DNA of 64,000 nucleotides, from the NCBI GenBank assembly GCA_964415385.1, contig CAYPZK010000002.1, forward strand, positions 46,320-110,319, written 5' to 3'. This stretch comes from an uncultured Bacteroidaceae bacterium. GTDB taxonomy: Bacteria; Bacteroidota; Bacteroidia; Bacteroidales; Bacteroidaceae. The notes under the pieces were generated by a model, which saw only the letters and a program-made list of their open reading frames with translations, was not told the DNA's origin and searched no databases. Positions 58,901 through 61,070 of the stretch are shown piece by piece. How positions within the stretch are numbered: the stretch's first letter is position 1; each line of letters begins with the position of its first letter. Both the position numbers and the translations under genes were made by a program.

Positions 58901-60379
58901 GACGGCGAGATGACCTACTGCCAGCTCGACGACGCGGACAGCAACAAGTACGCCGACGGCACCGCCGCCATGCTCGACGGCACGGAGGGCGACTGCATGA
59001 TGCTGGAGCCGTTCTACTGGAGCAAGGGCGTGAACGACTACCTGAACAACAAGCACTATGCGTGCTACAACGGTACGAACGACGCGGAGCACGAGCCGGC
59101 GCGCCCAGACGCGACGGTGCTGACGCTGGACGACATCAAGGCGGCGGACGGCGGCTACCTGTCGAACCGCAAGATCATGAGCGGGAAGGAGAGCCTGTCG
59201 AGCTCGTACACGACGGACACGGCGTACAGTGTGTGCAAGGTGGACGTGGAGGGCTACAAGCGCGTGCGCTTCCCGACCGTCCCCGGCACGAACCTCGTTG
59301 GCTCGGTGTTCACCGACGCGGACGGAAATATCGTGGAAACGGTGGTGGTGAGCACGCTGGGCAGCAAGTTCGAGGCGGGCATGTACCTGATCAAGGACGT
59401 GCCGGAGGGAGCTGTGGCGCTTCACTTCACGGTGATGAACACGGCGGAGTTCGACAAGGTGGTGTTGAGCAAGAGCGACAAGATAGAGGACATGGAGCCG
59501 GAGTGGATCGGCAGCGACGCGCACCTGTGCGGCGTGTTCGGCAGCAGCGTGGTGGGCACGAAGCTGCGGAGCTGCGTCACGGGCGGCAGCACGACGGGCA
59601 GCATGACGTGGACGGACTTCCACTACTACTCGGTTCAAAGGGGCATGCAGCAGATCGACGCGCTGATGCACTCCCGGATAGCGAACCTGTTCTACGCCAA
59701 GTACGGACGGCGTGACAGCCAGGCGCAGTGCGGCGCGGGGCAGCACAGCAACATGCGCACGACGGGCGGCACGGCCGGCCACGGCATGACGGACACGATA
59801 GGCTACGACGCGGCGAGCGCGATCAGCGACAAGGTTACAAACAGCCTCGTGGACGAGAACAGGGTTCACCAGTACGCGTGGTACACGGGCGAGGACGAGT
59901 ACGGTAACAAGACCGTGACGCAGGTGAACAACATCTGCTGCCTGGGCTACGAGGACATCTACGGGCACAAGTACGACATGATGGACGGCGTGGACCTGCC
60001 CAACGACAGCGGCAACGCCGGCAAGTGGCGTATCTGGATGCCCGACGGCACGACGCGCATGGTGAAGGGCACGACCACGAGCGGGAACTGGATAACGGGC
60101 GTGGCGCATGGCCTATACATGGACGTGGTGCCCGTGGGCAACGTGAGCGGCTCGTCATCGACATATTACTGTGACACCTACTGGATAAGCACCGCCACGT
60201 CCCGTGTGGTCTATCGCGGCAACAGCAGCGCGCATGCGAATGGCGGTGTGTCGTGCGCGTATGCGGTCAACGGTGCGTCGAGCTCGGATTCGGGTGTCGG
60301 GTCGCGTCTGGCCTTCTGCGGCAAAATCGTGGAGGCGTCGAGCGTTGAGGCGTACAAGGCGCTGGACGAGGTGGCGTGA
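52979..60379 (+). CDS. giant tail fibre / receptor-binding protein and DGR target
   Basis: 2466 aa. YadA-head-like SG-N-S-A-G repeats (about 53341-53690). LamG-like region (about 55741-56245). CotH-like region (about 56371-57780: RIQGTSSTKYPAKNLRIY ... DQRAKNMLLRTWDGLKWYITYYDGDTQLG). LRR-like region (about 58010-58510). C-terminal VR. Confidence 0.85.
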   Translation: MATMTDEERSALKSELKNEVLEEIKSGSNDITELDTVDTLDNVKSLPALQDETLVLAPISLLGKPATEAAETANAAAKVANAAAEKADDAADTAVHAASAANDAAESAQKVVSAAVVVSGTGEKSVTQDGNDNVASGDNSVAFGQSNTVSGKNSVALGQDNEATGSESIALGDDNTASGNNAIAEGHLTVASGSSSHSEGNSTESAGKYSHAEGLGTKAVGVASHAQGQYNVGNDDTLDEVGMGTSDTDRKNAEETKTDGKKYLVGVGGYDGTNAGADGVESVQEVIEGMESADEKALSGMTVRFDGFVSGTTISGQASRATTSVYYDTENKRFVYKTETGTMVTAWGDDTDLYMNADRTEILKDRCYLLDGTLYAWSEKEGTLAEAGGSGSGSGFYNVTQEQPLADGTYYTKDTAIAALADAKVKDEDKPGMIVTFEQSAGVWADYRFVGSSIDSFLLPASWEEYGGKIKSVSLNGTDITPDSNGNVALAIDQISVDESLDESSTNPVQNAVVASKINEISDAAVGGVEVISDDEKNTLNILNKKGTVIASAEFTGGGGSGTSTASRIVLTAALDKTQVKEGGTAELTYSYNHVNSDNEADGIKADITVTIQRGTTKTYEQTIKDVSAGTYTLDVSEYLLAGTMDIYVKAVATTAEGTQQTKQAYVSLQVITLTLTSSYNLGTNIAQGGYKNTDTIEIPFTITGSGTKDVSMYLDGGTTPTVQTINKSGTVNGSFTIQGSALTAGRHTVQLVAERSGLKSDSIFIDILKAGNDAAFVGVKYTDTDGTILTGDDITPTIKAAQYETMSFQYIAYDPDTTPATVEVWLNSKLSQTINAPRTMQTYTNRPTEQGTQTLELKIGSVSRTVSVNVVESSIDISEATYGLVAKLSAAGRSNGEADPAVWESGDIKTTFSGMDWSSNGWTGDALKLTNGAKAVIGYQPFKSDVKSTGLTVEVTMRVSNVMTRTAPVLSCIDGGKGILFTAEEASFKTGQSVTYTNEDDETVSREIKLGTNFVADEWIKAALVISTKDNNRLMELYINGNRTGADIYDTSFNFQQDDPQDIVISSEGADVEIRSIRIYNRAVSDDEELENRIVDAETSEEMMQLYDDNDILGDTGGVDIDKIRAKGKGVLRIVRANKLDDVYETNNKKTDFKADIYFYSPYGSDYDFVLKDCNIRIQGTSSTKYPAKNLRIYMAKGGESLSLTIGGVENPNGSNKYKMRPGAVAMDLFCCKADYSDSSMSLNTGGAKLFNDIFKELGLLTPPQQYQYEQGGDQTSAINIRTAIDGIPIDIFCAETEDGESEYYGQYNFNNEKSKSQTLFGQEGLDGYTPDCPLTLETLNNGEKLCLFQSESDDDVATNFDAGLETNYPDDVKWAGLTDAQKTALTRLFGWIRDCVPTGATADDLTTFVSSKFVSEIDDYFDKDFILTYYLWTDYFLSVDQRAKNMLLRTWDGLKWYITYYDGDTQLGKRNDCFLVYTYTTDRDTYDAEASKYAFEGRESWLWNLVLANLQDDLRDCAAKLRAVMTNERVLEMFNVEQAGHWSDRAFNKSGELKYIKPAVQEMYGKIWPFIYALQGSNTSHREYLVKNRFALLDAKYGTSNFTSDNIDMYLSRATSDEADVIKITANEVYAFGYGTNNSPNIANTGIIEGGETAELSISGAYTVNDPLRVYGASRIKVLNMTGAADHLKNGLDLGKCSVLQEINLQSSGSGSTGWWLVLSACRSLKKLDVRNQQQAKTGSSTSKEIDLSNNTKLEYLDARGTQVESVNFAQGAPVATAYLPSTIKTLRLEYLAQLSEDGLTLESWANVETLIFAGCPLLDWQTILGKCTGIKRLRVTGVDMEGDGTLLADLMETGGVAADGSYTDTCALVGTYRLTQYPTDEEMDAWKAHYPELNIKLPEYTMIEFDDTVSDDANVSNLDNKTGYKYGNDYVPSGHILQILKKRHRVLAKVTKKATTRSVTIAGTDTTMNNLDGEMTYCQLDDADSNKYADGTAAMLDGTEGDCMMLEPFYWSKGVNDYLNNKHYACYNGTNDAEHEPARPDATVLTLDDIKAADGGYLSNRKIMSGKESLSSSYTTDTAYSVCKVDVEGYKRVRFPTVPGTNLVGSVFTDADGNIVETVVVSTLGSKFEAGMYLIKDVPEGAVALHFTVMNTAEFDKVVLSKSDKIEDMEPEWIGSDAHLCGVFGSSVVGTKLRSCVTGGSTTGSMTWTDFHYYSVQRGMQQIDALMHSRIANLFYAKYGRRDSQAQCGAGQHSNMRTTGGTAGHGMTDTIGYDAASAISDKVTNSLVDENRVHQYAWYTGEDEYGNKTVTQVNNICCLGYEDIYGHKYDMMDGVDLPNDSGNAGKWRIWMPDGTTRMVKGTTTSGNWITGVAHGLYMDVVPVGNVSGSSSTYYCDTYWISTATSRVVYRGNSSAHANGGVSCAYAVNGASSSDSGVGSRLAFCGKIVEASSVEAYKALDEVA
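60199..60311 (+). repeat. DGR variable repeat (VR)
   Basis: Gap-free alignment to 60606-60718 with 12 mismatches, all at TR adenines. Confidence 0.9.
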
Positions 60380-60392
60380 CGGCGGAAGCGGC

Positions 60393-60478
60393 AAAGCGGG
60401 AACCGGTAAAGCGGGAGCGCAGCGACAAAGCGAAAGCGTGATGCGAAACGATGGCGCGGAAAGCGAAAGCGCAAAGCG
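60393..60478 (+). repeat. seven AAAGCG hexamers in 86 bp between VR and TR
   Basis: Copies at 60393, 60408, 60427, 60433, 60460, 60466 and 60473. Confidence 0.6.
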
Positions 60479-60504
60479 CAGGTGTCCGAGGAACGAGGAC
60501 ACCG

Positions 60505-60535
60505 TCCGAAAACGGGCGGAGCCCGTCGGATTTTG
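60505..60535 (+). terminator. terminator of the fibre gene: TCCG-AAA-ACGGGC-GGA-GCCCGT-CGGA followed by TTTT
   Basis: Read directly. Preceded by a second hairpin GGTGTCC-N9-GGACACC (60481-60503). Confidence 0.6.
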
Positions 60536-60568
60536 GTGAAAAGCCGAGGCGATGCGGTTGTAAATGAG

Positions 60569-60576
60569 TACCTTTG
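60569..60576 (+). promoter_or_regulatory. -7 box TACCTTTG driving the TR-RT transcript
   Basis: 30 nt upstream of the TR start. Confidence 0.5.
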
Positions 60577-60605
60577 TGTTAGCAAAAAGGGTGGCGGCTC
60601 CCATA

Positions 60606-60718
60606 GTCCCGTGTGGTCTATCGCGGCAACAACAACGCGAATGCGAATGGCGGTGTGTCGTACGCGAATGCGAACAACGATGCGTCGAACTCGAATTCGA
60701 ATGTCGGGTCGCGTCTGG
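60606..60718 (+). repeat. DGR template repeat (TR)
   Basis: AAY-codon-rich (…YRGNNNANANGGVSYANANNDASNSNSNVGSRL if translated). Identical to VR except at 12 adenines. Confidence 0.9.
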
Positions 60719-61070
60719 AAAACAATGAATCGGCGTACAGCAATGTGGACGTGTCCACGATGCGGAGCCGAGGGAGCCAAGCCCCGCCAAAAGCGGCGGT
60801 ATGGGACGGAGGATAACTGTTCCTTGCCGGAAAGGCGGAAAACGGAGTGGCGGGTAGAGTCTGGTAGGGCCGCAAGGTCTCGAACGACTCGGGCCCGGGA
60901 AATGAAGGCATGAGCCTTAAGCAAATAGAAGAGAAATGCGCAGGGACGGTCACGTCATAGAGGAAATCGTGGACTACGGCAACATGTCGGAGTCGTTCGA
61001 CACGGTCTTGCGCGGCACGAAGCGCAAGCGGTGCCGCTAGGGTCGGTGGCTGCTCGCGCACAGGGAGGAG

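Follow-up and report, generated by a model that had tools for sequence, protein, structure and literature searches.

The window analysed here, a stretch of 64,000 nucleotides (nt) from contig CAYPZK010000002.1 of an uncultured Bacteroidaceae bacterium, carries a gene for a giant tail fibre or receptor-binding protein whose 3' end holds a variable repeat (VR). This gene is followed on the same strand by a template repeat (TR), a structured RNA of the Rfam family RT-3, a reverse transcriptase (RT) gene interrupted by one stop codon, and an open reading frame (ORF) for a DUF4376 protein (Table 1). The arrangement is that of a diversity-generating retroelement (DGR), and its closest described counterpart is the DGR of Hankyphage, reported by Benler et al. 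2018 (PMC6199706) for Bacteroides phage p00 (BK010646.1).

Table 1. Features of the DGR cassette and of the prophage that surrounds it, in window coordinates
Feature	Position	Strand	Remarks
DGR target gene, 2466-aa tail fibre/receptor-binding protein	52979-60379	+	N-terminal YadA-head-like repeats (Pfam YadA_head)
Variable repeat (VR)	60199-60311	+	Codons ~2407-2445 of target; ends 22 codons before the stop; 12 mismatches to TR
GC-rich 3' end of the repeat, GTCGGGTCGCGTCTGG	60296-60311 (TR copy 60703-60718)	+	Identical in VR and TR; IMH-like by position
Two tandem hairpins and T-run, probable fibre-gene terminator	60481-60530	+	DNA fold z = -3.1; 0/200 shuffles as good
TACCTTTG, Bacteroidetes-type -7 box (TAnnTTTG)	60569-60576	+	30 nt upstream of TR
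Template repeat (TR)	60606-60718	+	Non-coding; 25 adenines, 22 of them in 11 AAY 'codons' (VR frame)
RT-3 structured RNA (Rfam RF03068)	60728-60897	+	cmscan 127.6 bits against a gathering score of 40.5; E = 5e-32; full model 1-148
DGR reverse transcriptase gene	60936-62240	+	434 codons; ATG start (MRRDGH...) as in p00; in-frame TAG
Premature TAG, RT codon 35	61038-61040	+	CAG>TAG; Gln in relatives
DUF4376 protein, 162 aa	62253-62741	+	Directly after RT; Pfam DUF4376, phrog_19239; pI 4.8 (acidic)
MuA-like	25469-27664		
MuB-like	27731-28681		
Gam	30804-31349		Mu Gam domain
Portal	34508-35914		
TerL	36356-37888		
Capsid	39472-40569		

The repeat pair differs only at template adenines

An independent ungapped comparison and a repeat finder both returned the gapless pair of 113 nt that a first-pass annotation of the window had proposed, with 89% identity and a constant offset of 407, and the codon changes and both peptide strings listed there were reproduced exactly. 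The TR has A at all 12 mismatches (VR positions 60225, 60228, 60233, 60255, 60260, 60266, 60267, 60273, 60282, 60287, 60293 and 60294), which correspond to A>G in 9 cases, A>T in 2 and A>C in 1. Mismatches at non-adenine positions, which the annotation had named as the observation that would speak against a DGR, did not appear on re-alignment, with 0 of the 88 non-A positions of the TR differing from the VR. If 12 mismatches were placed at random, the probability of all of them falling on A would be 1.05e-9 (hypergeometric; 25 A in 113 nt).

Read in the frame of the target ORF, the TR adenines occupy the first codon position 11 times, the second 14 times and the third never, and the count of AAY codons agrees with the AAY-rich design noticed earlier. 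Because the adenines are confined to the first two codon positions and 22 of them lie in AAY codons, the template could specify up to about 15^11 x 4^3 (about 5e14) stop-free variants of a 37-residue receptor-binding patch. A search pattern made from the TR by replacing each A with N matched the window exactly (0 mismatches) at 2 places and nowhere else, with 0 matches expected from 100 shuffles, so that the window contains one VR and one TR.

Both copies close, as annotated before, with the same GC-rich element, GTCGGGTCGCGTCTGG, which by its position resembles the initiation of mutagenic homing (IMH) element. With substitutions, this element also closes VR and TR in p00 and in L174, a Logan contig (SRR20784066) that represents the closest complete relative of the locus. 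The extension of the homology by a further 7 nt differing only at TR adenines stands literally, with 6 mismatches and 1 match, and fails as a sign of mutagenesis, since the VR flank is invariant in homologues. This 3' flank (CCTTCYGCGGC) is kept in L174 and p00 and encodes Ala-Phe, two residues (A279, F280) that are invariant in 43 homologues, and the corresponding TR flank is merely A-rich (AAAACAATGAA); for these reasons we place the end of the repeat homology at 60311 and 60718. The VR-TR comparison revealed no IMH*-like partial similarity past the GC-rich element.

Variable repeats of related loci change at adenine-templated positions

Relatives of the target C-terminal domain number 333 in IMG/VR and 93 in GTDB species genomes, all of them at most 78% identical in amino acids (aa) to the window protein, and their hosts include Bacteroides, Phocaeicola, Parabacteroides, Prevotella, Paraprevotella, Muribaculaceae and others. 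Both repeats were present in 77 loci, and 74 of the VR/TR pairs were gap-free. Mismatches are restricted to A in 49 of these 74 pairs; the pairs together have 703 mismatches at A, and a further 188, found mostly in about 15 loci, affect other bases. In TR-A columns the entropy of the VRs exceeds that of the TRs by 1.12 bits, against 0.02 bits in all other columns. The loci with many non-A mismatches (e.g. L056, L073, L078, L080, L084, L090 and L112) suggest decayed or recombinant cassettes.

The comparison with L174, whose RT is 97.7% identical to that of the window, bears on the direction of transfer. Its TR equals the window TR except for one C/T difference at a codon third position, and the two VRs differ only at A-templated sites and at this same C/T, each VR matching its own TR. 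Since the C/T covaries with the cognate TR, information was copied from TR to VR after the lineages of the window and L174 had split. A second relative, P0016, is 91% identical outside the VR and its VR differs only at A-containing codons. The variation at A-templated positions that had been predicted for VRs of related loci was found in L174, in P0016 and in the 77-locus family comparison.

These data also bear on an ordinary segmental duplication followed by drift, in which the adenine bias would be coincidental. Such an event would explain that a direct repeat exists and nothing further, but not that 12 of 12 mismatches lie on A (chance about 1e-9), that dozens of related loci share both the architecture and the bias, or that an RT and a DGR-associated RNA are adjacent, and we consider its probability negligible.

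A separate observation concerns six runs, belonging to two run series, whose Logan contigs join an A-mutagenised VR-like repeat directly to the TR 3' flank (L006, 1-550; L008, 1-561; also L011 and L012; and L175 and L176 for P0016). These contigs proceed from the fibre coding sequence through the VR-like repeat and the TR 3' flank to the RT-3 RNA and the RT, skipping the stretch of about 400 bp by which VR and TR are usually set apart, and other contigs of the same run series break inside the TR. Logan assemblies derive from a k=31 graph; if this applies here, reads must hold the L006 join, because only 19 nt separate the last VR-specific base from the TR-specific flank. The joins may represent a deletion by VR x TR recombination, a cDNA-derived molecule or an assembly path through heterogeneous VRs.

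A DGR-type reverse transcriptase with a premature stop

The product of the RT gene matches Pfam RVT_1 and phrog_1423, contains the motifs IGLRSSQ (IGxxxSQ) and YCDD, and has the same length as the p00 RT, with 76% aa identity. Among solved structures the Bordetella DGR RT (8ub7) is its best match (E = 1.2e-20, over residues 4-320) and outranks group II intron RTs. The earlier annotation of an RT gene downstream of the repeats is supported by RVT_1, phrog_1423 and 8ub7, with the correction that codon 35 is an in-frame TAG. Residues ~327-432 (window 61914-62237) form a conserved extra C-terminal domain of ~105 aa; it matches phrog_19665, whose members are phage proteins that occur on their own, and no PDB or Pfam similarity was found for it.

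Codon 35 specifies Gln in p00 and in all 14 RTs of the 90% cluster (94.7-97.7% identical), and it is CAG in L174. The longest intact ORF (61071-62240) starts at GTG and encodes 389 aa, a product that is on record in NCBI and that does not include the N-terminal 45 residues, which align to residues 5-45 of the Bordetella RT. Interrupted RTs occur in 3 of 96 full-length family loci, namely the window, L043 and L115; in L043 the gene is broken by a stop at codon 388, and several frameshifts disrupt it in L115, the second of the copies carried by Bacteroides finegoldii JCM 13345.

Under genetic code 15, which certain crAss-like and Lak phages use, TAG is recoded to glutamine, and the window RT would be translated over its whole length. 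The exact alignment of the TAG with a Gln codon (CAG) in every relative fits such recoding, but CAG>TAG is also a single transition, and this TAG is the only interruption among about 30 prophage genes compared with p00. Moreover, TAG terminates 4 of 28 prophage ORFs, the portal gene at its orthologous stop and three others, the 64-kb window contains no tRNA, suppressor or otherwise, and the host encodes a release factor 1 (RF1) with a PAT motif (18537-19643, minus strand). On the strength of the host RF1, the TAG-terminated phage genes, the lack of any tRNA in the window and the lack of any other interrupted gene, we treat the TAG as a true stop and reject recoding as highly improbable.

As the stop appears genuine, the window copy of the DGR is probably inactive at present, a conclusion drawn from sequence that we hold with some reserve. 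The inactivation would be recent, because VR and TR show no non-A difference and the rest of the RT is intact. Two points count against inactivity, namely that it is deduced from a single base in one assembly, and that the last homing must itself have been recent given zero non-A mismatches between VR and TR. The DGR could still be active if the TAG were a sequencing or assembly error, if it were read through at a low level, if translation from the GTG at 61071 bypassed it and gave a functional 389-aa product, or if the RT of another Hankyphage-like element present in the cell complemented the lesion. Continued activity would agree with an RT ORF that is otherwise intact and 96-98% identical to intact relatives, with the recent homing implied by the VR, with the calling of the 389-aa ORF as a protein in the NCBI annotation, and with the existence of genomes that hold two Hankyphage-like copies, such as B. 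finegoldii JCM 13345 (L096 and L115). However, TAG is a normal stop in both host and phage, the truncated RT would lack an N-terminal segment conserved down to the Bordetella enzyme, no second RT lies within the 64-kb window, and the interrupted RTs of L043 and L115 show that decay is real in this family. We therefore regard an active DGR as the less likely state, although one to be taken seriously, and favour a cassette that lost its RT a short time ago.

Other elements of the cassette

The tandem hairpins that follow the target gene start about 100 nt past the fibre stop codon and ~170 nt downstream of the VR; they are the only strong hairpins there and probably constitute the fibre-gene terminator. 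A terminator-like site was called at 60515-60527, and the counterpart hairpins of p00 show the same fold with a different sequence (z = -5.45). Within the VR-TR spacer, positions 60385-60480 consist of degenerate AAAGCG repeats, and there is a 33-nt insertion relative to L174. The 65-aa ORF that p00 encodes between VR and TR has no counterpart in the window; the equivalent stretch amounts to 21 codons, and because these are made of AAAGCG repeats and hairpins, we treated it as non-coding.

TAnnTTTG is a promoter element in Bacteroides promoters. All 77 related loci compared have a box of this type 33-43 nt ahead of the TR anchor, and none of the 77 has one ahead of the VR. TACCTTTG fits the consensus and is the probable promoter of the TR RNA. 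On the other side of the TR, the RT-3 RNA starts nine nt past the repeat and fills the gap to the RT start, differing from the family consensus by a 26-nt insertion in one terminal loop. The RT-3 RNA is presumably transcribed as the 3' portion of the TR RNA and, by analogy with the 'Sp' region of Bordetella phage BPP-1, would be recognised by the RT or serve it for priming.

The accessory variability determinant (Avd) is a basic four-helix-bundle protein. The orthologue of the DUF4376 ORF is labelled 'Avd' in Hankyphage records (PV107405.1), and the window ORF is without resemblance to canonical Avd; it matched no NCBIfam family and resembled no solved structure. The part of Avd may be taken by a divergent protein or by one that substitutes for its function. 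After the DUF4376 ORF, a 14-nt perfect inverted repeat (ACCCTTACGGAACG / CGTTCCGTAAGGGT) with a T-run at 62824-62875 is likely the terminator that closes the DGR operon.

The target gene and its neighbours

The target protein is 66% identical in aa to the product of p00 ORF 31489-38226, matches the PHROG family phrog_14959 and has an orthologue annotated as 'Tail fibre protein' in PV107405.1. It is preceded by genes for a tape-measure protein (43140-48353), a distal-tail protein (48358-48831) and a minor-tail or Tal-like protein of 1363 aa (48856-52947), and these upstream neighbours match Pfam TMP_3 and Prophage_tail.

A profile search against 1.84 billion representatives showed that the last ~145 residues of the target are a widespread C-terminal module, present in at least 1333 proteins that vary greatly in length, many of which share only these ~145 residues. 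Ten proteins sharing only this portion had no Pfam domain there. Benler et al. reported a C-type lectin domain for the p00 target orthologue (PMC6199706). In the searches made here with 34 members of the target-domain family, a single non-significant match to an FGE-sulfatase (formylglycine-generating enzyme) domain (E = 0.23) was seen.

Prophage and host context

The DGR belongs to a Hankyphage-like, Mu-type transposable prophage that occupies the window from ~25158 to 64000 and whose right end runs past the window, the edge falling inside an N6-adenine methyltransferase (MTase) gene that starts at 63238. The prophage ORFs include some with Mu Gam and Mu Gp36 domains. A tblastn search with 46 p00 ORFs gave about 30 collinear matches between window positions 25158 and 63996, with products that include MuA/MuB, helicase, MuF, portal, terminase, protease, capsid, lysin, tail proteins, the target, the RT, the DUF4376 protein and the MTase. 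Identity to p00 at the aa level is 66% for the target, 76% for the RT, 62% for the DUF4376 ORF and 65% for the MTase, and only ~28% in the early region.

In a megablast comparison with phage records, p00 and its relatives matched the 3' part of the target, the TR and the RT with ~74% nt identity, and the p00 record annotates the matching segments as DGR variable repeat, template repeat and reverse transcriptase. Given the synteny with p00, the annotated DGR of p00 and the Mu-type domains, we identify the locus as the DGR of a Hankyphage-like transposable prophage. Membership of the Hankyphage genus (>70% intergenomic similarity) is doubtful when nt identity is ~74% across one third of the region.

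The first 23 kb or so of the window represent host chromosome with about 58% G+C, encoding NIF3, pyridoxal phosphate-dependent (PLP) enzymes, RF1 and others. Clustering at 90% leaves the host RF1 as a singleton, and the only near-identical named fragment comes from a metagenome-assembled genome (MAG) labelled 'Prevotella sp.'. The gene for this factor, prfA, adjoins an N6_N4 DNA methylase gene (17518-18522).

Interpretation and proposed mechanism

Taken together, the A-only mismatches, the DGR-type RT, the orthology to an active Hankyphage DGR and the A-site variation of relatives uphold the earlier proposal that the locus bears the footprint of mutagenic retrohoming on a phage receptor-binding protein. 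We assign a probability of about 0.9 to 0.95 to the interpretation that it is the VR/TR pair of a Hankyphage-type DGR in a Mu-type prophage of a Bacteroidales host.

Several results weigh against this assignment. Degenerate TR and VR patterns of this exact lineage gave 0 matches in JGI metagenomes and IMG/VR. Family searches recognised no canonical Avd in the ORFs flanking the cassette or in 10 further small prophage ORFs, and no significant hairpin was detected within 90 nt after the VR (z = 0.41), unlike in BPP-1. The C-type-lectin or FGE-like fold that had been expected at the fibre end was not recovered either: AlphaFold2 models of the C-terminal domain reached a mean pLDDT (predicted local distance difference test) of only 56.4 with the family alignment and 59.7 with a broader one that included remote homologues, and Foldseek comparison of both low-pLDDT models with the PDB returned noise, with no match at E <= 0.001. 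Sequence and profile searches of the domain against the PDB gave chance matches or none, Pfam found nothing on 43 and on 34 target homologues, and NCBIfam found nothing.

The mechanism that we propose follows the Hankyphage family and the BPP-1 paradigm. Transcription would start at the TAnnTTTG promoter and span the TR and the RT-3 RNA, and the RT would copy the TR portion into cDNA, misincorporating opposite adenines. The cDNA would then replace the VR, which lies in the 3'-terminal part of the gene for the 2466-aa fibre, with GTCGGGTCGCGTCTGG marking the 3' boundary. The present VR, changed at 12 of 25 A positions and at no non-A position, would be the product of at least one homing event, and the later CAG>TAG change at RT codon 35 would have frozen the cassette, unless an RT acts in trans or the TAG is an assembly error.

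A more speculative interpretation, which we think unlikely, is that DGRs of the Hankyphage type work without canonical Avd, the C-terminal domain of the RT and the RT-3 RNA, and perhaps the DUF4376 protein, taking its place. The amber codon would then be a tolerated lesion or a leaky off-switch. A second speculative point starts from the several related assemblies in which a mutagenised VR joins the TR 3' flank directly; fusion of VR and TR would, on this view, be a recurrent form of self-destruction.

In the preferred interpretation of a Hankyphage-type DGR, the window locus joins a family that is already published and experimentally studied, and our understanding of DGRs is unchanged by these findings. 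What is new is the RT nonsense mutation and, probably, a freshly frozen DGR, that is, a natural element caught just after RT loss, while its VR is still TR-like at every non-A position. Such an element would be useful as a negative control in activity assays and, with interrupted RTs in 3 of 96 family members, for estimates of the decay rate. The locus further adds a divergent, high-G+C member to the Hankyphage DGRs, from a host outside the characterised Bacteroides and Phocaeicola lysogens, and, with its relatives, it places the orphan Rfam motif RT-3 within a DGR.

Comparison with known systems

The Rfam entry RT-3 (RF03068) is matched over its full length in the window, where the motif adjoins the RT gene, and both the window locus and its relatives put it directly 3' of the TR. 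The BPP-1 DGR (mtd VR/avd/TR/brt) resembles the window locus in its adenine-specific TR-to-VR differences, in a VR placed at the 3' end of a tail-fibre gene and in a repeat that closes with a GC-rich element; the window RT is homologous to the BPP-1 enzyme bRT (8ub7) over residues 4-320 and has the IGxxxSQ motif. The window locus departs from BPP-1 in that no recognisable Avd was found, that IMH* similarity is missing past the GC-rich element and that no significant hairpin follows the VR directly. Its RT carries the extra C-terminal domain of ~105 aa (phrog_19665), the RT-3 motif occupies the stretch from TR to RT, and the target is eight times as long as Mtd, with no C-type-lectin fold recovered.

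The likeness to Hankyphage p00 is much closer. Adenine-specific diversification of the tail-fibre VR by the Hankyphage DGR was measured in cultures and virions in 2025 (PMC12135933). Both p00 and the window present, in the same order, the tape-measure, hub and minor tail genes, the giant target with its C-terminal VR, the two-hairpin spacer, the TAnnTTTG box, the TR, the RT-3 RNA, the 434-codon RT, the DUF4376 ORF, an 80-aa ORF and the N6-MTase. They further share an AAY-rich TR, a similar repeat length (113 nt in the window and 110-117 nt in Hankyphage), the Mu-like transposition module and the head genes. The two differ in sequence, with ~74% nt and 66-76% aa identity, only ~28% identity in MuA and MuB, and a much higher G+C content in the window (about 58%). 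At 2466 aa the window target is longer than that of p00 (2245 aa), from which it also differs in its N-terminal third. In the window, VR and TR are offset by 407 rather than 370, thyA is absent between the 80-aa ORF and the MTase, and the RT carries the premature stop.

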